A stretch of 24,665 nucleotides of DNA from Candidatus Hadarchaeales archaeon (lineage in GTDB: Archaea; Hadarchaeota; Hadarchaeia; Hadarchaeales; Hadarchaeaceae), in NCBI GenBank assembly GCA_038872135.1, contig JAVZGN010000015.1, positions 1 through 24,665 on the forward strand, given 5' to 3'. A program made the position numbers and the translations under genes. This document shows positions 6,993 through 21,955 of this stretch, one piece after another; within the stretch, counting starts at the first letter, position 1; each line of letters begins with the position of its first letter. The notes beneath the pieces were generated by a model, which saw nothing but the letters and a program-made list of their open reading frames with translations, searched no databases and was not told the DNA's origin.

Positions 6993-8096
6993 ATGGATAA
7001 AGCAAATGGTCTCCCGCTGCTATATAGAATGTTGAGAGGAGAAGTGTTTGTGAGCAGTGTTATCTTCAGGCCTGTTTGGTTTGATTCAATGGGGGCAAAG
7101 AGCAGCTGCACCATAGTTGAAACCCCAGAAGTGAAGGTTCTCATTGACCCTGGGGCGGCGATAATGCAACCGGGCTTTCCCGCTTCCTGGGCAAAGAAGA
7201 TTTACTGGCTCGCCAAGGCCGAGCTTGCCGTCAAAAGGGCGGCGAAGGGGGCAGATGTCGTGGTGATTTCTCACTATCATTATGATCATTTCACGGATTT
7301 TGATGGAAGCATTTACAAAAACAGGCTTGTTCTGACAAAGAATCCAAACGAGTACATAAACGATTCTCAAAGAAAAAGGGCAGAATCCTTCTTCACAACA
7401 TTTGCTAAGGAGCTTGGCAGGATGGAGCTCAAAATGGAGGAGAGAGAAGCCAAAGAATTTCCCGACCCTCTCGAGGAGATTCCGATCGCCGCAAGGAAAA
7501 GCTTTGGAGACTACATGAAAAGGAGGAGGGAACTCTTCAGAAAGGGTTCGAGATGGCTCGAAGGGAGAGTCAGGAGATGGAACTCCTCTGGATGGATTCC
7601 TGAGATGAGGTTTGGAAAGACGAGGGTGGAGTTCCCGGAAGGAAAAACCTACAGATTCGGGCGCACAAAAATTTCATTTTCAAGGCCATTTTTCCACGGT
7701 GTTGAGTTTTCGAGAGTTGGGTGGGTTTTTTCAACAATTGTGGAGAGGGGTGATGAGAAAATCATTCATTCCTCTGACCTGAACGGTCCGGTGATAGAGG
7801 ACTACGCTGAGTGGATCATAGAGCAGGCCCCCACAGTTCTGATCTTGGATGGGCCAATGACATACATGATGGGATATCTCGTCACGAGAACAACATTGGG
7901 TCGGGCAATTGAAAATGCTGTGAGGATTTTGAGGGAGACCCAGCTTGAGCTTCTCGTCTATGACCACCACCTTCCCCGCGAGCCAAACTTTAGAAAACAC
8001 GCCCAGAAGGTGTGGGAGGAGGGGAAAAAGCTTCACAAAAAAGTGATGACGGCGGCGGAAGTTCTGGGGAAAAAGCCGGTTGTGGAAATTTCATAA
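6993..8096 (+). CDS. Metallo-beta-lactamase-fold hydrolase (UPF0282-like)
   Basis: 'FDSMGAKS', 'LIDPG', 'ISHYHYDH', 'HSSD', 'LDGPMTY', 'DHHL.R' motifs; true start probably about 7029-7050. Confidence 0.85.
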   Translation: MDKANGLPLLYRMLRGEVFVSSVIFRPVWFDSMGAKSSCTIVETPEVKVLIDPGAAIMQPGFPASWAKKIYWLAKAELAVKRAAKGADVVVISHYHYDHFTDFDGSIYKNRLVLTKNPNEYINDSQRKRAESFFTTFAKELGRMELKMEEREAKEFPDPLEEIPIAARKSFGDYMKRRRELFRKGSRWLEGRVRRWNSSGWIPEMRFGKTRVEFPEGKTYRFGRTKISFSRPFFHGVEFSRVGWVFSTIVERGDEKIIHSSDLNGPVIEDYAEWIIEQAPTVLILDGPMTYMMGYLVTRTTLGRAIENAVRILRETQLELLVYDHHLPREPNFRKHAQKVWEEGKKLHKKVMTAAEVLGKKPVVEIS

Positions 8097-8199
8097 ATCA
8101 TTAGCCCTTGAAGGGTTTTCTTGGTGCGGTGAAGCCCGGCGGTTCCCAATGAGCCCCCATTTATACCACTATGGCAGAGAATCTTCTGGGGTGAAAGAG

Positions 8200-9990
8200 A
8201 TGAAGGAGTCTATCAGACAGCCAATCATCGCAGTCCTCGGGCATGTGGATCACGGGAAGACATCGCTTCTCGACAGGATAAGGGGGACATCTGTGGCAGC
8301 AAGAGAACCCGGAGCGATAACCCAGCATGTTGGGGCCACGGAAGTTCCGGCCGCTGCGATAAAAAAATTCTGCGGTCCCCTTCTAGAAAAGTTCAAGATT
8401 GAGATAAAGATACCTGGGCTTCTTTTCATTGATACTCCCGGGCATGAGGCCTTCACGAACTTGAGGAAGAGGGGAGGGGCGCTGGCAGATCTTGCTGCGC
8501 TGGTAATCGACATCAACGAGGGGGTGATGCCCCAGACGATTGAGTCCATAACCATTCTCAAGACCTTCAAGACTCCCTTTATGGTGGTCGCCAACAAAAT
8601 AGATACCATCCCCGGGTGGAAACCTTTCCCGCAGGCCCCATTCCTTGAAACAATTTCTAAACAGGGGAGAGGGGTTCAGCTGGCCCTGGATGAGAAAATT
8701 TACAGGCTTGTGGGCAGCCTCTATGAGCATGGGTTTGAGTCGGAGAGGTTTGACAGAATCACTGAATTCAGGAGGCAGGTGAGCATAGTGCCGGCCAGCG
8801 CAAAGACCGGGGAGGGAGTGCAGGAGGTCTTAGTTGTCCTCTTCGGGCTTGCCCAGAGATACCTGGAGGAGGAGCTGAGAGTGAGGGTCTCTGGAAGGGC
8901 GAGGGGTACTGTTCTCGAGGTAAAGGAGGAGACTGGACTTGGAGCAACCCTTGACGTTATCATCTACGATGGATGCCTGAGGAGGGGGGACCTCTTCGCG
9001 ACATGCCGGCTTGATGGCCCCACAGTCTCTAAGGTAAGGGCAATTCTGAAGCCCAAGCCCCTTGACGAGATAAGGGACCCTGAGGAGAAGTTCTCCTCTG
9101 TGGCTGAGGTCTACGCTGCAGCGGGGGTGAAAGTTGCCGCCCCGGGGCTTGAGGGGGTTGTGGCTGGAGCCCCCTTCCAGGTAATTGAGGAGGAGGTGGA
9201 TGCAAGAAGGGTCTGGGAGGAGATGCAGGCGGAGCTGGAGAGCGTGAAGATTTCTTCAGACATAAATGGGGTTGTTGTGAAGGCTGATGCCATCGGGTCT
9301 TTGGAGGCCATCGAGGGGCAGCTAAAGGCGAAGAGCATCCCCATCAGGCTTGCGGATATAGGCAGTGTTTCCAAGAGGGATGTTGTTGAAGCCGCCACAG
9401 TTGCCGCCGATGAACCTCCCCTTGGGGCTGTGCTGGCTTTTAACGTTGATGTTCTAGAAGACGCCGCGGCAGAGGCCGAGAAGAGGGGCATAGAAATCAT
9501 GAGGGAGAATGTGATTTACAGGTTGATTGAAATGTATGAGGAGTGGGCGAAGAAGAAGAGGGAGGAGGTTAGGGAGAAAAAACTTGAGGTCTACGTGAGG
9601 CCGGCGAAGCTGGCTGTCAAACCTGGCTATGTGTTCAGGAGGAGCGAGCCGGCCATTGTCGGTGTCGATATCCTTGGTGGAGTCCTGAGGCCGAAGGCCC
9701 CCCTGATGAAAGCAGATGGAAAGAAGATTGGCGTGGTGAAAGAGATTCAGAGGGAGAAGAAGCCGGTTCATGTGGCGAGGCTGGGCGACGAGCTTGCCAT
9801 CTCCATAGAGGGGGGAGTTGTGGGGAGAAACCTGGAGGAGGGAGACATCCTTTACACAGATATTCCACGGGATCATGTGCTGGTTCTCAAAAGGGATTTC
9901 AGGGAGTTCCTTTCAGGTGATGAGCTGGCGGTGCTGGATGAAATAATCTCCATCAAGCAGCGGGAAGATCCAACCTATGGGGTGCTGTGA
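8200..9990 (+). CDS. infB: Translation initiation factor aIF5B (IF-2)
   Basis: 'RQPIIAVLGHVDHGKTSLLD', 'ITQHVGAT', 'DTPGHEAF', 'NKID', 'VFRRSEPAIVGV'; start trimmed to ATG 8200; no intein seen. Confidence 0.97.
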   Translation: MKESIRQPIIAVLGHVDHGKTSLLDRIRGTSVAAREPGAITQHVGATEVPAAAIKKFCGPLLEKFKIEIKIPGLLFIDTPGHEAFTNLRKRGGALADLAALVIDINEGVMPQTIESITILKTFKTPFMVVANKIDTIPGWKPFPQAPFLETISKQGRGVQLALDEKIYRLVGSLYEHGFESERFDRITEFRRQVSIVPASAKTGEGVQEVLVVLFGLAQRYLEEELRVRVSGRARGTVLEVKEETGLGATLDVIIYDGCLRRGDLFATCRLDGPTVSKVRAILKPKPLDEIRDPEEKFSSVAEVYAAAGVKVAAPGLEGVVAGAPFQVIEEEVDARRVWEEMQAELESVKISSDINGVVVKADAIGSLEAIEGQLKAKSIPIRLADIGSVSKRDVVEAATVAADEPPLGAVLAFNVDVLEDAAAEAEKRGIEIMRENVIYRLIEMYEEWAKKKREEVREKKLEVYVRPAKLAVKPGYVFRRSEPAIVGVDILGGVLRPKAPLMKADGKKIGVVKEIQREKKPVHVARLGDELAISIEGGVVGRNLEEGDILYTDIPRDHVLVLKRDFREFLSGDELAVLDEIISIKQREDPTYGVL

Positions 9991-12810: not shown

Positions 12811-13166
12811 CTTGCTCGTGCTATGATTGTAGCAAATATTGAAAAGTTTGCTATAATGATGGCAAATTTTAAAATTTAGCCTGGCGCAAAGCTTTCTGAA
12901 ATGAGCCAGAGCAAGCCAGCTGAAGCATGCAATGTCCTTCCCAAAAGAACTTACGACTCGGTGGACGGTAGCAGGAGCATCAGGCACCGGGAGAAGCCGA
13001 TTGCCCTGTTAGAGAAGCATCCCAACGGCGGGCAACCATCAAAAGTGGGTGATGGAGCGTGGTGGATGAATTTCTCGCTAGTTGCGGGAAGCATCCGGGT
13101 GGTTAATTTTGCTCAAGTTTTGGACGATTCTTGCAAAGTTTTTTCTCCGCGAGACGATGGATAACC

Positions 13167-13243
13167 GGGCCGGTAGTCTAGCCAGGATAGGACGCGGGCC
13201 TCCGGAGCCTGCAGCACGGGTTCGAATCCCGTCCGGCCCGCCA
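13167..13243 (+). tRNA. tRNA-Arg(CCG), CCA encoded; anchor of the island
   Basis: GGGCCGG/CCGGCCC acceptor stem, anticodon arm CGGGC-CT-CCG-GA-GCCTG, T-loop GGTTCGAATCC, G73, CCA at 13241-13243. Confidence 0.96.
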
Positions 13244-13458
13244 CCGACAAGAACTCGGGGCAAAATAAACTGGTGAACCTCCCCTTACTCGCTCCCACCC
13301 CGCATCCACGGGCATCATCCTTTCAGGGGAGACCCCGGCAGTGCCGGGCGTTAGTCACCAATCTACTCTCCGTGGGGCGATGTTTATGGCTTTTGGCGAG
13401 TCAAAAGGCAGACGCTAAAGATCATGGATTGTTTGACATGGCGGTGCTACCCTCGGGC

Positions 13459-16400
13459 TCATTTGGCTGCGCTGACCCTCCGCTCGACCGTCAGGTCTAC
13501 TTGGCGCTGTATGTTCTCGACATCCGCATCCTTGATGCCCAAGATTTTTGCCACGGCGCGGTCGATCTCGTATATCTTGGGCTTGAGCTTCTCAATCTGC
13601 TCCTTGGTTGAGGCGCCACCGATTTTCCTCGCTTCATGTTCTAAATCGCCGAAAAGCTTAGCCAGCGATTTCAACTGTTTTTCATCCAGTTTGTTTACGT
13701 CAAGGATTGGCATTTCTCTGGCAACATTTATCTCGAAACCAATTATCCCGCCAGGGCTTTTTCTACCGTTAGTTTCGATGTAGGCCTGCGTAAAGCTTGA
13801 GTTGAGATATGCTAAAAGCGCTTTAGTTTTGATTTCATCAAAAGACACGCCTTTCTTAGGAATCAAAGCTATCAGTGCATGATAAGTAGCCACTGGAAAA
13901 TTACACCATATAAATCTGGTCTTGTACCATGCTTGGTAAATTGCAAATATCGGTGCTGTGACCACACCACCCAAGTCGTACCAACCATAGAATTTCTTCT
14001 TTTCTTTTGCCCTGTTTTTCGCTGCTTCAGTTTCATTTGCTAGCCTTCCTCCCCCTCGGCTTCCTCGTATCTTTGTTCTGCACTCGGTCTCGCCCCATTT
14101 GATGTAGCCCACAACCTCTTTGGGCAGTTTTTCTTTTGGAGAATGACCGATGAACATGTAACACTTATCATCTGATTTGTGCATCTCCTCCCAGTCCTCC
14201 TCGGTAAAAGTGAAGAAGTTGGTCTGTCTGGCGCTTGTTATGGCCGGGTACACCAAAGCCTCGTCCAAAGAGGCCTTTGGGTAAGCCCATTCTTCAAGCC
14301 CGAAATCTTTGATTTTGGACGGCGACAAGTAGTGGAATTCGCTGGAACCTGGATCTGGTCTTTTTCCATGAGAGATGGACCATTGGGCCCATGTGGTGTT
14401 CCCTCTTAACGGCTCGAAAATCTCGCCAAGTTTTATCATAAGCGGGTGTTCTGAAATATCCACAGTCTTGAAGAACATGTCTATCCATTTTCTATCTCTC
14501 GGGATCTCTCCCTGCTTAACGAGCCTAACCTCGAATTTCTCTGATTTTCCGGTCTGAATCGCTTTCAAAAGAGCGCCAACATCCTCCTTCTCGACCTCAC
14601 CGGGGATGTGTATAAAAACAGTTTCATTTTCTAGTCTTTTTGCTTCATCACTCTCCCGCTCCGCAAGCACTATGCACGTTGTTACCAAGGCATCTTTGAA
14701 AAGTTTGAGAGCAGTGTCAATAATTGCCTTTATCCTGAAGTTGTCGAGGAGAAAATTCCCAAACCCTATTCCATAATCTGTCTGGAGCCAGGTGTTGGAA
14801 ATGATCATTCCAAGCCGTCCCCCTTCTTTCAAAAAGTCCGTCGCATGCATTATCCAGTAGGTGTAAATCCCTGGTTCAACACCCCTCGAAACTTGAGGCG
14901 TCAACCCGTACTTTTTCATCTGCTTTTCCAAGTGTTTCTTGATCAACGCCTTGGACTCTTCAGGTATCTCAGTCCACCGGGTGTACGGAGGGTTCCCGAT
15001 TACTGCGTCAAATTTCGGGAACACTACCTCCCGCTCCTCGTCCCTCACAATTCCCTTGACCTTGTACGGGCTCAGAACCTTCTGCCCGGGCTTGATGGCA
15101 AAAAAGTCGGAAACCAGCACATTAAGGCTCGTGGAGGGGGCTCTGATGCTTTTGATCGATACCCCCATCGCCGTAAGGTGGGCCGGGAAGGGGTTTATAT
15201 CTAAAGCGTAGAGCTGGCTGAGAATTCTTTCATGAACCTCCGGGCGAACAATCGAAATCATGCTTGGACCAACTTTTAGCTCCCGAAGGCGCTTATACGC
15301 CTCCAGCAGGAACCCTCCACTCCCGACACCGGGATCCAGTACAATGTCTCCCTGGTCCCTGATGCACCATTTGGTTATAAGTTCGCAGACCCAAGGGGGC
15401 GTGTAAAACTGGCCGAACTGGTGCCTCTCCTCGGGCGGGATGAGCACCTCGTACATGTAGCCTATTTGATCCCCAATTTTGACGACATCAATGCTCTCAA
15501 GATCGTAAATGAAATCGTTGATATACTCCATCAACTCTGGGTCATCCGGGAGCAGGGACAGAAGCCTGTCATAAACTCCCGCCCGGAATATTGGCTCAAA
15601 ATCTTTGGTGGCGTCAATGGCTCTCTCAAAGTGGTAGCCGAGCTGTTCCTTGAACTTGGCCAGCGATGAATAGTCGAGCTCAACCATCGGGGGCAGGCTG
15701 TAGCTTTTCTCAAGAATCTTGCGAAAGATGAGTTTGTTCATCAAAACGTATGCCATCATGCGCGCCAAGATGTTTGTTGTCTGAAACAGCGCATCGGGAG
15801 TTGTCTTGTATCCGAGTTTTTCCACCTCGCTTCTAAAAATCTCGTCTTCTTTGAGCCTAGACTCCAGAAGGGGCGCACACCGCTCTGCCACCGTCCTCAC
15901 GAAGCCCCTGAACCTGCCTATCATCGCCTCGGTTGGTTCAGGTTTTGTCGGCTTTTTCTCGACATATTCTTTAGCAAGGGTCTCGAGTAGCGACTCAACA
16001 AATTCATGGCTCAGCGAGAGCTTCTGAACCTTGCCGACCATATGCTCTTCGAGGATGAAACGATACTTCCGTTTTATGGCATCCTTATAATTCCGCTCCA
16101 GCAGGGCCGCCCGATCGATATAATCCTCAATGTTCTTAGGGACTCTAAAAACCGCGATGTGCTCTGGGTTCGCCGTGGCAACAAATGGAACTTCGTGTTC
16201 GGGGTGGGAGCGCTTCCAGATTGCAGCGTAGCTCATAACCTGCCCAACCACGGAAGCATCGAGAGGGTCGAAAAGGGTTCCCCTGCCTTTCCCCTTTCGC
16301 TTGGTCTCGATAAACATGAATGGAATTTCGCCCCGCATAAAGAGTACTAGATCAACTTCTCTTCCGTCCACAGGATAGTCTCTCTCGACATGAGCGATCT

Positions 16401-16482
16401 CAATCCCGTGGAACCTTTTCCCTTTTGTAACCCGCTCGATCAATGCCCGTAACTCGTCCTGAATCTTGGCTTCCCGCTCCAT
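13459..16482 (-). CDS. Type IIG-like restriction-modification enzyme (fused PD-(D/E)xK nuclease, N6-adenine MTase, TRD)
   Basis: N-terminal 'EVDLVL...FIETKR'; 'GQFYTP', motif I 'DPGVGSGGF', motif IV 'NPPY'; 1007 aa. Confidence 0.88.
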   Translation of the reverse strand: MEREAKIQDELRALIERVTKGKRFHGIEIAHVERDYPVDGREVDLVLFMRGEIPFMFIETKRKGKGRGTLFDPLDASVVGQVMSYAAIWKRSHPEHEVPFVATANPEHIAVFRVPKNIEDYIDRAALLERNYKDAIKRKYRFILEEHMVGKVQKLSLSHEFVESLLETLAKEYVEKKPTKPEPTEAMIGRFRGFVRTVAERCAPLLESRLKEDEIFRSEVEKLGYKTTPDALFQTTNILARMMAYVLMNKLIFRKILEKSYSLPPMVELDYSSLAKFKEQLGYHFERAIDATKDFEPIFRAGVYDRLLSLLPDDPELMEYINDFIYDLESIDVVKIGDQIGYMYEVLIPPEERHQFGQFYTPPWVCELITKWCIRDQGDIVLDPGVGSGGFLLEAYKRLRELKVGPSMISIVRPEVHERILSQLYALDINPFPAHLTAMGVSIKSIRAPSTSLNVLVSDFFAIKPGQKVLSPYKVKGIVRDEEREVVFPKFDAVIGNPPYTRWTEIPEESKALIKKHLEKQMKKYGLTPQVSRGVEPGIYTYWIMHATDFLKEGGRLGMIISNTWLQTDYGIGFGNFLLDNFRIKAIIDTALKLFKDALVTTCIVLAERESDEAKRLENETVFIHIPGEVEKEDVGALLKAIQTGKSEKFEVRLVKQGEIPRDRKWIDMFFKTVDISEHPLMIKLGEIFEPLRGNTTWAQWSISHGKRPDPGSSEFHYLSPSKIKDFGLEEWAYPKASLDEALVYPAITSARQTNFFTFTEEDWEEMHKSDDKCYMFIGHSPKEKLPKEVVGYIKWGETECRTKIRGSRGGGRLANETEAAKNRAKEKKKFYGWYDLGGVVTAPIFAIYQAWYKTRFIWCNFPVATYHALIALIPKKGVSFDEIKTKALLAYLNSSFTQAYIETNGRKSPGGIIGFEINVAREMPILDVNKLDEKQLKSLAKLFGDLEHEARKIGGASTKEQIEKLKPKIYEIDRAVAKILGIKDADVENIQRQVDLTVERRVSAAK

Positions 16483-16576
16483 CTGTCAGCACCGTCTATG
16501 TTTTCATAGGATTTACGGTGTAACGGGTTAAAACTCTGTGGGGGGATATCGGTTGCCGGGGCGGTGGAGAGTGTGG

Positions 16577-16596
16577 ATCCAGTCCGGCCCGCCACC
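16577..16596 (+). repeat. att-like copy 2 of the tRNA-Arg 3' end
   Basis: atccagtccggcccgccacc vs 13226-13245 atcccgtccggcccgccacc, 19/20 identical. Confidence 0.9.
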
Positions 16597-16685
16597 AGCT
16601 CGGAAACCGACCCGTTGAGAAATGTTAGAAATGCGGCAGTTTTGTCTGCGGCTCACCCATGCGCGCTCTCACTTCCAGTAACCCG

Positions 16686-17111
16686 TCAACCCGAGATATC
16701 TAAAAATTGCCGTGGGGTCAGAATTTTCGCCCTCCTGAATCGTTTCAACTTGAGCAAGTGTTTGTCTCCGCTGACGATAAAATTGCAGTTAGCCTCCAAG
16801 ACGCACTCCAGTATTTTATTGTCCGCAGGATCTTCCTTTACGAGGATAACTCTTTCTTTTGGTTTAACCACCGTGCAGTTTTTCACTATGATTTGAAGTA
16901 TCTCTCGCGAGCTTATCCCGGCCAGTTTGAGCAACTCGCTGAGTTTGGGATACATCAGAACCCTCGATATTTCTTCCAAAATCTCTCTGGAAATGAACAA
17001 TTGTATTTCCCCGCTTTCGAAGATCCGGGAGAATTCTCTGCTCGGGGTCTTTTTTGTAAAAATCGACACCCATACATTGGTGTCTAAGACCGCTCCGACT
17101 TTCTTGCCCAT
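16686..17111 (-). CDS. PIN-domain toxin (PIN_3/VapC-like)
   Basis: 'VLDTNVWVS', 'ILEEI..VL.YPK', 'DPADNKILECVL...IVSGDKHLL' motifs. Confidence 0.92.
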   Translation of the reverse strand: MGKKVGAVLDTNVWVSIFTKKTPSREFSRIFESGEIQLFISREILEEISRVLMYPKLSELLKLAGISSREILQIIVKNCTVVKPKERVILVKEDPADNKILECVLEANCNFIVSGDKHLLKLKRFRRAKILTPRQFLDISG

Positions 17112-17353
17112 TCAAGCGCCTCAGAGATCAACTTGTCCACGTCGATTCCCTTTTCTCTTATGGTCTTCTCCATCCTTTCTCCTATTTCCTCTGCTGATAC
17201 CTCCAATTTTTTAAGCAGGATATCTCTGTCCTTGCTTATCACCAGAAGTTTTTCTCCAGCGCTTATCCCTAGTTTTTCCCTGAGTTCCTTTGGTATCACG
17301 ATTTGGCCCTTTGGCGAGACTTTTACCACGCCCTCGATTTTTTCATTCATCAT
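17084..17353 (-). CDS. AbrB/MazE-family antitoxin
   Basis: 'VKVSPKGQIVIPKELREKLGI..GEKL' motif; overlaps the PIN gene start; start trimmed to ATG 17353. Confidence 0.9.
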   Translation of the reverse strand: MMNEKIEGVVKVSPKGQIVIPKELREKLGISAGEKLLVISKDRDILLKKLEVSAEEIGERMEKTIREKGIDVDKLISEALEWARKSERS

Positions 17354-17436
17354 ACAATTCATACTTTTCTTACAAGTATCTAATGTCTTACTCATGAGAA
17401 ACAATCGATCGGGGTCGGTTTTCGAGGAGGTATAAA

Positions 17437-17454
17437 GAGTCCCGTCCGGCCCGC
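17437..17454 (+). repeat. att-like copy 3 of the tRNA-Arg 3' end
   Basis: gagtcccgtccggcccgc vs 13224-13241 gaatcccgtccggcccgc, 17/18. Confidence 0.88.
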
Positions 17455-17470
17455 TTTTGCGCGGGTTAGA

Positions 17471-17767
17471 TTACTTCATCACCTTGTACATCGTGTAGAG
17501 CCCCGCCAGCAGAGAGATTAGCACGACCCATTGGAAAGTCTCTTCTAGGACGGCATCCGTCTGCGCATCCACCACGCCGAAGTTGTATAGGAGGGTAGCA
17601 ACAGACAGGATTGCCACAACGAGGAGGGCCACCTTTACCCCGTTCACCAGCTTCCTCAGCGTCCCCACGGCCTTGAACTTCATCTGGAAGAACACCAGCC
17701 CGCCGATGGCAAACACAGCCTGAATGATGTCAATAACAGTCTCTACCGCCCCTGTCATCTCTATCAC
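17471..17767 (-). CDS. Small 3-TM membrane protein of unknown function
   Basis: 98-aa ORF with three hydrophobic segments; only intact gene in cassette 3. Confidence 0.7.
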   Translation of the reverse strand: MIEMTGAVETVIDIIQAVFAIGGLVFFQMKFKAVGTLRKLVNGVKVALLVVAILSVATLLYNFGVVDAQTDAVLEETFQWVVLISLLAGLYTMYKVMK

Positions 17768-17894
17768 CTGTAAGTTGCTGGGCAGGATTTTTATACATTA
17801 TGCTGACCGGTTCCGCGCCCTTTTAAGGATATACGCCTTCTTTAGATTGGCTGGGTTTGGGGCGGTGGTTATGAAAACCGAAGAAGATGAGAGT

Positions 17895-18020
17895 ATGAGC
17901 CCCAAATCAAATCCGAAATGCCCGGTCTGCAGAGCAGGCTCGTGAAAAATTGGTCTTCGACCGGTTGGCGCCGCTACAAGTACTCCAAGTGCGGCAAGAA
18001 GTTCGTGGATAAATTGCTGG
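17895..18020 (+). pseudogene. Degenerate IS1/InsA-type zinc-ribbon fragment
   Basis: MSPKSNPKCPVC, frameshift, then LVKNWSSTGWRRYKYSKCGKKF, resembling CPxC...vKNG...GxQRYxCxxCgxxF. Confidence 0.5.
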
Positions 18021-18107
18021 GTAAATTTAAGGCGAGAGGGGAGTACCCTGCTCCCGTCTGGATTAAGGTTTTGGTTCTGGAGAGGGCGGATTCAACCCTT
18101 TTTAGGG

Positions 18108-18129
18108 TCGAATCCCGTCCGGCCCGCCA
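18108..18129 (+). repeat. att-like copy 4 of the tRNA-Arg 3' end
   Basis: tcgaatcccgtccggcccgcca identical (22/22) to 13222-13243. Confidence 0.93.
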
Positions 18130-18213
18130 TCAACTCGGAAACCGACCTGGCGGGGGAGGCAAGCTAGGCTGATTGTCAACCAGATGCCTAGAGACGGGCA
18201 CGCCGCTCGAACC

Positions 18214-19431
18214 TCACAAATCCGTTACGCACACAAACCCCTTTCCATCCACAAACGTCTTCGTGACGACATAGTGCTCACGCAAACCTAATGACTTTGC
18301 AACCCGCGCCAGTCTTTTTATGTCTTGGACAGTCCCTCGTTCCTTCACCTCCACCGCAACGCCCTGTTTTTTCATGATGAAGTCAATCTCTGCCGTGCCG
18401 GTCCGTCGCTGATAATACATGATTTCATCCCTTCTCTTCAAAATGTTGAAAACGGCATTTTCGAGTAGCGCGCCTGAGGAAACCTGCGCGAAGTTGTTCA
18501 GGATTCCGGTATCACAGAGATACACCTTCCTCGCCCCGCTCACCTCACGATCAACATTCCTGCTGAACGGCCGCACCAGGTTGATGAAGTAGGTCGCCTC
18601 AAGAAACGAGAGATACGAGTACACTGTCTCCCGCGCTAGGCCCAGCTCGGAGGAAATTCTGCTCACGTTCAGCTTAGAACCGGTGCGTTGCATGAGCAGG
18701 AGGATCAGCTCCTGTAGTTTGCCGATGTCCCTGAAGTCGGCCAGCGATCGAACATCTTTTTCAAAATAGGACTTGTAGATGTCCTCCAGGAATGTCTTCT
18801 TCTCGCTTGGGGAGTCGGACAAAGCCACCCTCGGAAATCCGCCATAAGCCAAGTACTCTTCGTAAAGTTTTATGTTCTTCTCGTAATCAACGTAATTTTT
18901 GTGTCTGTCTTTTTCCGCAAAGGTTGTATAGAACTCCTTTCGCGCGTTCTTAAAAACCAGAAACTCTTCAAAATCAAGCGGGTACAGCTGGAACATCACC
19001 TTCCTGCCCGCAAGGCTTTCTGGAAACAGGTTTTTCAGGTAGAAACTGCTAGATCCCGTGATGAAAAACTGCACGTTGTAGTGGTCGAAAAGGTACCTCA
19101 CCGCTTTCGCGGTTGTTGGTGCCGCCTGCATCTCATCCAAAAAGAGGTAAGCTTTTTCCTTTGGAGAAACGCCGTATGGCCGCAGGTTTGCCCAGATATT
19201 ATCATAATTTTTTTCTTGGAAGAGGCGGGAAACGATCGGATTTTCCATATCAAGGAACGCCTTGTTTTCACTCGCGATCTCATCGAAAAGCATTTTTAGC
19301 AGGGTTGTTTTTCCAACTTGGCGCGCCCCAGTCACAACAACGATGGCTTTCTTGCCCACCCATTTCCTCAGTTCAGGCAGCAGCTTACGTTCGTAGAGCT
19401 GGTTCTTTTTTCTTTCCCCAATTTTGTCCAT
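18214..19431 (-). CDS. AAA+ ATPase with C-terminal DUF4143 (COG1373 type)
   Basis: Walker A 'GARQVGKT', Walker B 'LFLDEMQ', 'ITGSS', 'ESLAGR', 'YGGFP', 'KVYLCDTG', 'EIDF...VEVK'. Confidence 0.92.
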   Translation of the reverse strand: MDKIGERKKNQLYERKLLPELRKWVGKKAIVVVTGARQVGKTTLLKMLFDEIASENKAFLDMENPIVSRLFQEKNYDNIWANLRPYGVSPKEKAYLFLDEMQAAPTTAKAVRYLFDHYNVQFFITGSSSFYLKNLFPESLAGRKVMFQLYPLDFEEFLVFKNARKEFYTTFAEKDRHKNYVDYEKNIKLYEEYLAYGGFPRVALSDSPSEKKTFLEDIYKSYFEKDVRSLADFRDIGKLQELILLLMQRTGSKLNVSRISSELGLARETVYSYLSFLEATYFINLVRPFSRNVDREVSGARKVYLCDTGILNNFAQVSSGALLENAVFNILKRRDEIMYYQRRTGTAEIDFIMKKQGVAVEVKERGTVQDIKRLARVAKSLGLREHYVVTKTFVDGKGFVCVTDL

Positions 19432-19532
19432 ATATATCTTACAAAATTTTACTAAAATTGTCTATTTAAATATTACGAAATAATCCATTCAGCGTCGACG
19501 AACAGGTTGGCTGTAAATAGAGACTCATCGAT

Positions 19533-19549
19533 GAATCCCGCCGGCCAGC
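19533..19549 (+). repeat. Degenerate att-like copy 5 of the tRNA-Arg 3' end (island right boundary)
   Basis: gaatcccg-ccggccagc vs gaatcccgtccggcccgc: one gap and one mismatch. Confidence 0.7.
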
Positions 19550-19599: not shown

Positions 19600-19959
19600 A
19601 TGAAGCGGAGAATTAGGATAATCACGAATGACTTTGCGGTGGAAGCTGAACTCCTCCCAGAACGCCCAAAAACCTGTAGCGGGATTTGGGATGCTCTGCC
19701 ACTGGAGGCAGAAGTCGAGATCTGGAAGGAGGAGGTCTACTTTGAGATTCCTGTGAAAATTCCGCCGGAAAATCCAACCCCAAATACAACTGCAGGGGAT
19801 GTCGCGTACTGGCCGGAGGGCCCGGGCTTCTGCATCTTCTTTGGGAAGTCGCAGCCCCTGAGCCCAGTGAACACCTTTGCCAGGATTGGTAAAGGGGTTG
19901 AAAAATTCAGGCGGGTGAGATCTGGGGACTGGGTGAGGGTCGAGGCCTCCAAGGAATAA
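19600..19959 (+). CDS. Cyclophilin-like fold protein (TM1367/DUF369-like)
   Basis: 'PKT...IWDALPL....WKEEVYF.IP....EN....GDVAYWP.G.GFCIFFG..P.SPVN' signature. Confidence 0.85.
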   Translation: MKRRIRIITNDFAVEAELLPERPKTCSGIWDALPLEAEVEIWKEEVYFEIPVKIPPENPTPNTTAGDVAYWPEGPGFCIFFGKSQPLSPVNTFARIGKGVEKFRRVRSGDWVRVEASKE

Positions 19960-20122: not shown

Positions 20123-20332
20123 ATGGCAACCACAATTCAGGTAAAGGAAGAGACCATGAGGCTTCTCTAAACTTTGAAGCGGGTAAACAATGCGATAAGC
20201 TATGATGAGGTAATCAGGATGCTCTTGACCGAAAAACTCCAAATAAAGGAGATGTTTGGCGTCGACCGCGGGAAGCTGAAGCCGTTCACTGAGGCCGATA
20301 GGCTGGAGGAGCGGGATGCTGATCTTAGATAG
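20123..20332 (+). pseudogene. VapB-type antitoxin with in-frame stop
   Basis: MATTIQVKEETMRLL*TLKRVNNAISYDEVIRMLL...MFGVDRGKLKPFTEADRLEER; TAA at 20168-20170. Confidence 0.8.
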
Positions 20333-20700
20333 CTGCGGGTGGGTGGAGTACTTTCTTGGAAGCGAGAAGGGTGCCATTGTGAAGGGATATCTGGACAAAG
20401 AGCAGGTGGTGACACCCGATGTTGTGCCCGCTGAAATAGCGCGAAAATATACGCTAGAGGGAATCGCGGAGGAGGAAATTAGAAAGCGTCTTTATTTCGG
20501 CTAAGAGTGAAATCGAGGGCTTGGACGCGGAACTTGCCCTAGCGGCAGCTGAAGCGTGGTAGGAACTCATGAGTGGGGTGAAGAAAAAGCCATTCCCCAG
20601 CCTCGTTGACGGTATCCTGCTTGCAATGGCCAGGAAGCATGGCGCAAAAATTTTGACCGGCGACATTCACTTCAGGGGGACTGAAGGAAGCGATCATTCT
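20316..20700 (+). pseudogene. VapC/PIN toxin, frameshifted and with premature stop
   Basis: MLILDSCGWVEYF...AEIARKY, frameshift near 20497, TAG at 20560-20562, then SLVDGILLAMARKHGAKILTGDIHF. Confidence 0.85.
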
Positions 20701-20981
20701 ATGAGGAAATCCCGAGGAGCCGGGGCTGAGTTAAACTTGCCCACCAGAATTGCAAATACCTTAAAATCCAAAGTTGGCCTAAAACAGTTCCCTCTCAAAT
20801 CTTTTGACCTGGAGGTTGCTGCCCTTTGCTGACTCCACCGCTGCTGCTCAATCGGGGTGCCGAAAGTTTCTAGGTAATGGTTTCAAGGGGCCGCCCCACG
20901 GAAAATTTTATTCAGACTGCCGAGGGTGCACAGTCAGAACACTAACCTTGAAAACCAGTCCTACAGAAGCTATTCTTATGT

Positions 20982-21006
20982 CTCGCAACTCTGTCCCTGC
21001 AGAGGG
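20982..21006 (+). repeat. 25-bp direct repeat of the anticodon-loop/variable-arm segment of the adjacent tRNA
   Basis: ctcgcaactctgtccctgcagaggg vs 21076-21100 ctcgcaaccctgtccctgcagaggg, 24/25. Confidence 0.9.
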
Positions 21007-21010
21007 CAAT

Positions 21011-21026
21011 TTTATTTATGTTTAAA
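21011..21026 (+). promoter_or_regulatory. Candidate TATA box for the anomalous tRNA
   Basis: AT-rich tttatttatgtttaaa, 16-31 nt upstream of tRNA position 1. Confidence 0.45.
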
Positions 21027-21041
21027 CTCTTATTTATAGTT

Positions 21042-21128
21042 GCCGGGGTGTCGGAGCTCGGTCAAACGAGCAGGGCTCGCAACCCTGTCCCTGCAGAGGG
21101 TTCGCGGGTTCGAATCCCGCCCCCGGCA
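21042..21128 (+). tRNA. Class II (long variable arm) tRNA with Leu-type body and anticodon CGC (nominally Ala)
   Basis: Acceptor GCCGGGG/CCCCGGC+A73; D-arm TCG-GAGCTCGGTCAAA-CGA; anticodon arm CAGGG-CT-CGC-AA-CCCTG; variable arm CCCT-GCAG-AGGG; T-arm GCGGG-TTCGAAT-CCCGC; CCA not encoded. Confidence 0.88.
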
Positions 21129-21955
21129 CGAGACGACCATGCCAATCGTCTCGATCTGTGGGGAGGAGAAACGGGCGGCATCCCGTATCTTGGCCGGGCT
21201 CTCCGGAGTTCGGCCTTCTCCTTTTCATCTCAAAATTTTTGAAAAGTTTTCTTGCCTCATTTCTGCTTAACGGCAAAACCTTGCGCAAGGATGTAGCCGG
21301 CGGGTCTTTTCACCGAGCTTCAATTTCCCCGCTGATCGATGTTCTCATCAGCAACTGTTATGAAGGCCGCCTGAACGACCTAAGTGCTGTGGGTATGATT
21401 TTCTGATATCGTGCGAATTGCGCGTATGGGCAGCCGAAGGCTTTTCAGCTAAAATGGGAGAATCAATCGCTGGGTGGCGAGGCTGATTATGCTCGAACCG
21501 GTGGAGCAGCTTTAACACTTCTCTGAAGTATCTTTGAAAGAGTGGTGGGGTCGGCAGTTTTGAGGCTCGGAGGCGATAATTTTGATTGATGCGTGGAAAA
21601 TCTCTGAAATTTAAGAATTTCGGCTGTTTTGTTTTTAAAGATTTCTGAAAAAGCCGAAAATCCATAGTAGTAGCTGAAGGTGCCTTTTTATTTAAGCTTT
21701 ATCGGGAAAAGCCGAAAAGATTGGGATAAATTTCCTGTTTAAAATCGCTCGATTTGGCACATTCTAATTCAGAAAGCCTGCAGGTGTACACCTTGGGTGG
21801 GGGATATCGCCATTTGGCTGGGGGAATAGCCCTTGCTGGATCGGGGAGGTGTTATTTTAGGTTCTGGCCCATTCAGCAATTCATTTTGCAATTGAGAATT
21901 GGCGAATGTCCCCCATCTAACTGTTCTCGGTTTTTATTGCTGACAATTTTCCCTT

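Follow-up and report, generated by a model that had tools for sequence, protein, structure and literature searches.

Single-module units without a detectable integrase are stacked at the tail of tRNA-Arg(CCG) in a Hadarchaeales archaeon

We analysed contig JAVZGN010000015.1 of a Candidatus Hadarchaeales archaeon (GenBank assembly GCA_038872135.1), on which four small gene modules lie in tandem downstream of an intact tRNA-Arg(CCG), each closed by a partial copy of the 3' part of that tRNA. The window, by which we mean the whole stretch of 24,665 nucleotides that was analysed, is the entire contig C15 of an assembly of 1.08 Mb in 34 contigs that is 91% complete. Units of the same format, bounded by the same tRNA tail and holding unrelated cargo, occur in other Hadarchaeota, and one pair of relatives presents an occupied and an empty version of the site. 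On this evidence we give even chances to the reading that four integrase-less modules accreted here by Campbell-type, site-specific recombination that crosses over in the T-loop, the modules having probably been mobilised in trans or being stranded now. An earlier reading of the window, made by a model from the letters and a list of open reading frames (ORFs) and called the sequence-only reading below, had proposed an integron-like array of defence cassettes at this tRNA.

Results

Copies of a tRNA tail bound four units

We use O as a label for the repeated segment that runs from the T-loop to the CCA end of tRNA-Arg(CCG) (13219-13243). A sequence check and a repeat search both place four partial copies of the 3' part of the tRNA downstream of the gene, all on its strand:

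13167-13243, plus strand: intact tRNA-Arg(CCG), called by ARAGORN and scoring 60.3 bits against the Rfam tRNA model
16575-16597, plus strand: O copy closing unit 1, 19/20 identical from 16577 (16577-16596), with two mismatches in the 18-mer
17437-17454, plus strand: O copy closing unit 2, 17/18 identical, without CCA, the class-B arm TTTTGCGCGGGTTAG standing directly after it
18105-18129, plus strand: O copy closing unit 3, 22/22 identical over 18108-18129 and 24/25 from 18105
19533-19549, plus strand: distal degenerate O copy with one gap and one mismatch, bordering conserved chromosome

The identity of the tRNA and the positions and identities of all four copies are those that the sequence-only reading had given. 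The distances from one O start to the next are 3351, 862, 673 and 1423 bp, so that its first three unit lengths stand and its last, 1422 bp, is corrected.

These repeats exceed chance. The 25-mer of O with up to three mismatches has two matches, as against none in each of 100 shuffles, and its 15-mer core with at most one mismatch occurs at four places genome-wide, all of them in the array if the tRNA is counted. A search of the whole genome with the 18-mer, allowing two edits, listed eight places, two of which overlap (18105/18110); five of the resulting seven distinct sites, among them the tRNA and the 19533 copy, belong to the array and the other two are in other tRNA-Arg genes, these being the sole further copies outside the array. 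The same search of five shuffled genomes gave 0, 0, 0, 0 and 1 matches. When all 42 tRNAs were scanned against their own genome, the matches were nearly all other tRNA genes; picked by eye, the places outside tRNA genes were the O array and a single place resembling tRNA-Ala (C1:16498), and a duplicated tRNA-Ser(GGA) was also conspicuous. Beyond the last repeat lies a cyclophilin-like gene (19600-19959) that is conserved in 20 of the 24 same-family genomes sampled, and we therefore take the array to end at the 19533 copy.

An occupied and an empty site in relatives

The comparison set comprised 66 Hadarchaeota genomes, the relatives all being metagenome-assembled genomes (MAGs). With at most one mismatch, the 18-mer of O is present in 44 of the 66 and stands at two to seven places in 10 of them. 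The O-bounded units found in relatives span 0.6-2.9 kb and carry unrelated cargo:

G052, 2.9 kb: ferredoxin and aldehyde:ferredoxin oxidoreductase
G022, 1.6 kb: PQQ-type propeller
G051 and G023, 1.35 kb: wHTH-nucleotidyltransferase
G015, 0.83 kb: DUF6036-type nucleotidyltransferase
G010, 0.62 kb: TspO
G050, 568 bp: no clear gene
G022 and G005, beside single O copies: Fic/DOC and PIN/AbrB genes

The orientation of the cargo relative to the repeat is mixed, being minus in G051 and G022 and plus in G015, G010 and G052. The locus thus differs in content from one relative to another within units bounded by the same tRNA tail. The sequence-only reading had named in advance two outcomes that would speak against it, uniform content among relatives and units that are remnants of a large integrase-carrying element, and neither was seen: content varies, and the contigs with extra copies gave no integrase match.

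The clearest case of precise insertion comes from G051 and G023, whose sequences around the tRNA align in the same order for more than 15 kb, 95-97% identical. In G051 the order is tRNA with O, the 1.35-kb unit, O and flank; on contig C6 of G023 the tRNA with O is followed directly by the same flank, and the stretch common to both alignments, 24 nt long, is O itself, as expected of an occupied and an empty site. The G051 unit is moreover 99.6% identical over 1367 nt to an O-bounded copy elsewhere in G023, while the flanks of the two genomes share 96.7% (7670 nt), 95.1% (748 nt) and 96.1% (7427 nt) identity; at flank divergence about 48 differences would be expected within the unit, and five are observed. 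This wHTH-nucleotidyltransferase unit is in none of the other genomes of the set. A further empty arrangement is seen in G006, where a flank sequence that follows the distal O in G050 and on G052:C27 stands directly after the tRNA. Empty sites of the kind that the sequence-only reading had pointed to therefore exist in relatives (G023:C6 and G006), and its other suggested trace, a circular junction, was not seen in contigs.

The second copy of the 1.35-kb unit in G023 adjoins dapB at the edge of a defence-gene region. We considered this place, on G023:C1, as a second attachment site and rejected it, since none of the five further genomes of genus g8 that were searched (G051, G050, G052, G017 and G010) has O at the dapB border and a rearranged array is likelier. 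The upstream gene and the tRNA are retained, without repeats, in three genomes of the same genus as the source (G001, G002 and G003); their downstream region differs, and so they give no empty-site information for the source species. Two further candidates for O-type units were set aside: a homologue of the toxin-antitoxin pair in G001, which has tRNA-Glu and tRNA-Arg(CCT) nearby and no repeats of either, and a DeoC segment on G022:C5, whose far end shows no recognisable O.

Some arrangements at or beside this site were noted in their own right. On G023:C6 about 0.8 kb (7652-8460) between tRNA-Arg(TCG) and tRNA-Arg(CCG) is absent in G051 and is possibly an insertion at the neighbouring tRNA. 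Bases 1-394 of loci L158 and L159 (G022:C5 and C19) hold a Fic/DOC segment that is 98% identical between two co-binned related genomes with flanks at about 84%; the common segment ends exactly at an O copy, both contigs begin inside it, and bin contamination is 8%. The tRNA tail occurs as an inverted pair in G006 (C62, 10563 on the plus and 27451 on the minus strand), 17 kb apart and with housekeeping genes in the interval, and in G010 (C1, 868117 plus and 542780 minus), at a distance of about 325 kb, which suggests chromosomal inversions at these sites. Inversions of a like kind have been described for Thermococcales (PMC5495485).

Junctions keep a T-arm-like layout and conserved arms

At every copy, identity to the tRNA starts in or beside the T-loop. 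Many distal copies have GGGTCG followed by GAAT ahead of O, where the tRNA itself has GGGTTC before GAAT. The motif mimics the T-arm, in which the two halves of the stem are inverted repeats of each other on either side of a 7-nt loop. Such an inverted repeat around a loop is reportedly, after Williams in 2002, a classic layout of tyrosine-integrase core sites, and the T-arm symmetry of the site thus points to a tyrosine-type recombinase. At the 18105 copy, AACCC and a T-arm-like GGGTC stand ahead of the repeat. With the three window junctions entered as one, AACCC occurs 15-23 nt to the left of O in 10/24 non-tRNA junction entries, and GGGTT occurs 9-11 nt to the right of O in 9/32 entries and anywhere within 40 nt in 12/32, against a background for each of about 4% per 40 nt. 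Some junctions have short inverted arms on either side of O, and the inverted repeats stand away from O at unequal distances, 6-10 nt to one side of it and 10-23 nt to the other.

One arm, X, occurs at three places in the window:

16594-16613, plus strand: arm X(+), left end of unit 2, inverted partner of 17412-17431
17412-17431, minus strand: arm X(-), right end of unit 2
18130-18147, plus strand: arm X(+), left end of unit 4, direct repeat D1 (92% over 36 nt)

In unit 2 the two copies form an inverted repeat (I6) of 20 nt, 85% complementary, just inside the direct repeats. The 14-mer of arm X has three matches in the window as against a shuffle mean of 0.20, and its exact 13-mer is found at only three places in the 66 genomes, each right after O: two are in the window and the third is in G052, a genome of another genus, where the cargo is unrelated. 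Likewise, the class-B left arm of unit 3, after the 17437 copy, is common to the G015 unit (90.6% over 32 nt), and a right arm of about 45 nt is common to units in G051/G023, G006, G015 and G047. Conserved arms around unrelated cargo would be expected of a module family under one recombination system and would also be expected as leftovers of related parent elements.

Each unit is nearly filled by one module

Within the four units, 32-215 bp are left at each end of the cargo, and all intact cargo ORFs (4/4 modules) are on the minus strand, as the sequence-only reading had stated:

13271-13360, minus strand: unit 1, left arm, DUF3800-X RNA motif (Rfam RF02984; 71.8 bits, gathering threshold 38.2)
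13459-16482, minus strand: unit 1, type IIG restriction-modification enzyme of 1007 aa (Pfam N6_Mtase 3.2e-25, Eco57I 4.4e-20)
16686-17111, minus strand: unit 2, PIN-domain toxin (Pfam PIN_3 1e-20; NCBIfam TIGR00305 5.2e-20)
17084-17404, minus strand: unit 2, AbrB/MazE-type antitoxin (Pfam MazE_antitoxin 3.8e-11; NCBIfam AbrB domain 3e-15)
17471-17767, minus strand: unit 3, hydrophobic orphan ORF of 98 aa, earlier read as a protein with three transmembrane segments
17830-18008, plus strand: unit 3, stump of an insertion sequence of the IS6 family (its left end with about 38 codons of a frameshifted DDE transposase)
18214-19431, minus strand: unit 4, AAA_14 and DUF4143 ATPase (Pfam AAA_14 9e-31, DUF4143 6.4e-30)

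PADLOC assigns the unit 1 enzyme to MTase_II and REase_MTase_IIG and the unit 4 ATPase to the candidate defence family PDC-S01 (6.6e-72). The claim of one functional module per unit is accordingly borne out by Pfam, PADLOC and NCBIfam for the type IIG enzyme, the PIN/AbrB pair and the AAA_14/DUF4143 ATPase, and has to be amended for unit 3, which consists of the orphan ORF and the IS6 stump. The orphan ORF has no match in Pfam, PADLOC or NCBIfam, and its sole homologue among 5.8 billion proteins is itself. The IS6 stump has no relation to the tRNA repeats; it shares 72-80% nucleotide identity over about 140-200 nt with four loci in relatives (G004, G015, G056 and G024), of which those at G015:C1 and G056:C1 are intact genes of 297 and 312 aa that match DDE_Tnp_IS240 and NCBIfam transpos_IS6, and the G004 copy has an in-frame TGA.

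The DUF3800-X motif is full length (1-73) and sits just downstream of the type IIG gene, in the space that separates this gene from the tRNA. Of the 66 Hadarchaeota genomes this one alone has the motif, and a DUF3800 gene is lacking from it. The 39-nt core of the motif (13286-13324) also turns up in high-depth contigs that come from other organisms of the same springs, and the core pattern has 0 matches in IMG/VR.

No recombinase is detectable in the genome

Six-frame searches of the own genome gave 0 matches to Phage_integrase (PF00589), 0 to the SSV-type archaeal integrase family (PF16795) and none to Cas1 (PF01867), resolvase or Y1 transposase families; this covers a 91%-complete assembly, and a recombinase gene could lie in the missing part. 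Nor is an integrase remnant detectable in the array or elsewhere in the genome. What the genome does hold by way of transposase-type matches is a distantly IS6-like ORF with a broken IS110-like gene next to it (C19:4469-6578) and two TnpB-like zinc-ribbon matches, both sub-threshold. The statement that the array carries no recombinase gene thus stands for tyrosine and serine recombinases, Cas1 and Y1, and needs the qualification that an IS6 transposase stump lies at 17830-18008. Bounded by O, made of single modules and with no recombinase detectable, the units are non-autonomous, as had been proposed.

Several candidates for an enzyme or its debris were followed and rejected. The ORF at 17918-18172 reads into the 18105 repeat in the manner of an int(N) remnant; it begins with the IS6 stump and continues into orphan sequence, and a comparison with 1.84 billion representatives returned only itself and zinc-ribbon noise. 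SSV-type int(N) and int(C) halves abutting O copies were not found (no PF16795 match), and the genes upstream of tRNA-Arg(CCG), which are Lon_C-like, DUF167, NTPase (NTPase_I-T) and NUDIX genes, leave no integron-type integrase beside the array. A casposase was dismissed on the ground that Cas1 is missing from the own genome and from four array-bearing relatives (G051, G052, G022 and G006).

Across the phylum, tyrosine recombinases are present in 44/66 genomes, examples being those at G004:C16 and G001:C2, SSV-type matches are present in 23/66, and G005, which has a single distal-type O copy, has an integrase match about 84 kb away on the same contig. Cas1 (PF01867) is found in 24/66 genomes, never on a contig with an extra O copy, and is not in G051, G052, G022 or G006. 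As a separate observation, the source genome, having no Phage_integrase match at all, has no recognisable XerA, and the same holds for 22 of the 66 genomes.

A second strain and the search for joints

The run that best covers the window and one from a different study (X2) are both labelled hot-springs metagenomes. In the second study a strain of about 97% identity has pieces of units 1, 2 and 4, and one of its contigs joins 17439 to 18214, omitting unit 3. Assembled contigs of four runs were searched for a circular junction or back-joint; two of these runs (X3 and X4) cover next to none of the stretch, and the uncovered parts are uninformative.

Other observations at tRNA genes

At 20174-21129 of the window there is a broken VapBC-like pair, its PIN domain split over 20316-20504 and 20569-20832, which stands upstream of a tRNA of 88 nt, called as Ala(CGC). 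Of the anticodon and variable region of this tRNA, 25 nt recur 94 nt upstream (20982-21006 against 21076-21100, 96%), and the copy may be another integration scar. On contig C2, two tRNA-Ser(GGA) genes (13082-13168 and 14638-14724) lie on the same strand 1.56 kb apart with identical 20-nt 5' and 3' ends, and the pair may bracket another small unit.

Discussion

The reading to which we give even chances would work as follows. Modules would have inserted one after another into the 3' part of tRNA-Arg(CCG) by Campbell-type recombination within an identity block that runs from the T-loop to the discriminator or CCA end, so that each insertion would rebuild the tRNA and push a partial copy, O, outward. 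Each module would retain the arms of the element at its two borders with O, which would yield attL-like and attR-like ends, and the topology seen, B-O-P' and P-O-B', fits Campbell integration. The enzyme may have come in trans from a helper element or may be a host enzyme that escapes recognition, much as with cis-mobilizable elements, or the modules may by now be stranded. Because the units are tightly packed with both arms, show no detectable integrase debris and include one that is near-identical across species, we argue that the small units are themselves mobile; the 32-215 bp at their ends also leave no room for a decayed backbone.

Several results weigh against accretion of mobile small modules. 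A helper is lacking: contigs bearing extra O copies, in the 10 of 66 genomes with at least two copies, gave no integrase match, searches of IMG/VR for a helper carrying O, or O with an arm, returned 0, 3 unrelated and 0 matches, and the JGI metagenome contigs yielded one chance match inside a coding repeat. Near-identical copies of the window's four units are absent from the other 65 genomes, and the assembled contigs of the four runs contain no circular junction or back-joint, a weak test in that it covers contigs only. The joint that omits unit 3 in the second strain has its left end at the repeat and its right end, 18214, away from O, and it is a single low-depth contig with a 28-nt side. 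Among the relatives, the dapB-border position of the second G023 copy is probably a rearrangement, and chimeric MAG joins at the repeats are possible. Integrase loss after integration is, moreover, the published default for integrase-less elements in archaea (PMC8371274), and with no helper, no circle and no recent copy of the window's units it stays a serious rival.

In that rival, which we hold possible and yet doubtful, each unit is what remains of a larger integrase-bearing virus, plasmid or island at tRNA-Arg(CCG) that lost its integrase and backbone by deletion ('gene capture'); useful genes stayed behind between att scars, and nothing moves any longer. The default just cited extends to tandem integrations in archaea, and tycheposon islands also hold partial tRNAs and integrase-less material (bioRxiv 10.1101/2020.12.28.424599). 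Tyrosine recombinases are present in 44/66 Hadarchaeota genomes; the O copies are unequally worn, the outermost being the most degenerate; and array content is largely the same in the second strain. Against decay stand the six-frame genome searches, which gave no integrase fragment, and the sole ORF reading into O, which proved to be IS6 stump and orphan sequence without relatives. All units in the window and in the relatives are trimmed to one module with both arms, which would be unexpected as the repeated outcome of random decay, and the integrase-less 1.35-kb unit is 99.6% identical across two species whose flanks are 3-5% apart.

We consider it very unlikely that the units are transposon-like, with terminal inverted repeats and with the tRNA tail as a long target-site duplication made by a casposase-like or another transposase. 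The 20-nt inverted repeats of unit 2 just inside the direct repeats would suit such an element, as would units of the same anatomy in G052 and G022, and tRNA 3' ends are a known target of casposons, which also sit in tandem (compare PMC4779613). The inverted repeats appear not to be terminal, however, lying at unequal offsets from O, and the distal copies run imperfectly into the 5' half of the T-arm, unlike a target duplication; Cas1 is in neither the own genome nor G051, G052, G022 or G006. The casposon target duplication is 14-15 nt long, shorter than the repeat of 18-25 nt here, and a casposon-like duplication is unlikely. Host homologous recombination, by which DNA from relatives would have entered through the short tRNA tail and arms with no dedicated enzyme, strikes us as equally improbable. 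It would account for the missing recombinase, the inverted O copies in G006 (17 kb apart) and G010 (about 325 kb apart) suggest rearrangement between copies, and integrase-independent exchange between tandem elements is discussed in PMC8371274. Stretches of 18-25 nt are nevertheless very short for this, the conserved inverted arms and the T-arm mimic look, by their letters, like protein-binding sites, and the insertions are at one tRNA and not at many similar tails (42-tRNA scan, by eye).

A stronger version of site-specific accretion, which we regard as unlikely, would make the tRNA-Arg(CCG) tail the seat of a dedicated Hadarchaeales cassette exchange in which one-gene modules with short conserved inverted arms would be inserted, excised and swapped between species by a recombinase that cannot be recognised as a tyrosine, serine, Cas1 or Y1 enzyme. 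If true, such a system would play in streamlined archaea the part that integrons play elsewhere. The label of an integron-like defence cassette array is upheld as far as O-bounded single modules go, and is weakened by the lack of an adjacent integrase and by mixed orientation and non-defence cargo in relatives; that cargo serves defence only can no longer be maintained, as relatives carry ferredoxin with aldehyde:ferredoxin oxidoreductase, TspO and a PQQ-type propeller. Hadarchaeota genomes measure 0.8-1.3 Mb. If integrase-less one-gene docking at a tRNA tail is real, it would offer streamlined archaea a cheap way to gain and swap defence and niche genes and would explain variable islands in many uncultured lineages. 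The 18-25-nt core with its short arms is a concrete site with which the missing recombinase or helper can be sought.

Comparison with known systems

Tandem integration, integrase-less integrated elements and SSV- or pNOB8-type 'gene capture' are covered for archaea in a review (PMC8371274). As in such tRNA accretion, an intact tRNA is followed here by displaced partial 3' copies and tandem units, some without integrase. Unlike it, the units are 0.67-3.4 kb long and single-module, they contain no integrase fragment, the genome has no detectable integrase, and the same small format recurs in 10 of the 66 genomes of the phylum. Closer in some respects are the cis-mobilizable elements (CIMEs) of Firmicutes, which are att-flanked, lie in tandem at a tRNA or att locus alongside integrative conjugative elements and are thought to be moved by the integrase of a neighbouring element. 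The Hadarchaeales units resemble CIMEs in having att-like sites at both ends, no recombination or transfer genes and a tandem arrangement at a tRNA; they differ in that no helper sharing the att site was found (66 genomes, IMG/VR and JGI contigs), in that the host is archaeal and in that they are known from sequence.

The tycheposons of Prochlorococcus have their own tyrosine or serine recombinase, often replication genes, and lengths of about 10-20 kb (bioRxiv 10.1101/2020.12.28.424599). Tycheposon islands are likewise situated at tRNA genes with partial tRNAs between elements, combine defence and niche cargo and have newcomers pushing older elements outward, whereas the units here have no recombinase and no replication genes and are one gene long. 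With integrons the array shares stacked one-gene cassettes, each closed by a putative recombination site that has inverted arms at some junctions, and, in the window, cargo all in one direction. It departs from them in having no adjoining IntI-like gene, a tRNA tail in place of attC, mixed orientation in relatives and cassettes that appear to have their own putative expression signals. In the literature searched we found no description of such arrays in Hadarchaeota, or of mobile elements of this phylum. Accretion anchored at tRNA genes is thus known, and what is unusual here is the combination of integrase-less, one-module units and conserved arms with comparative evidence of precise insertion and spread.

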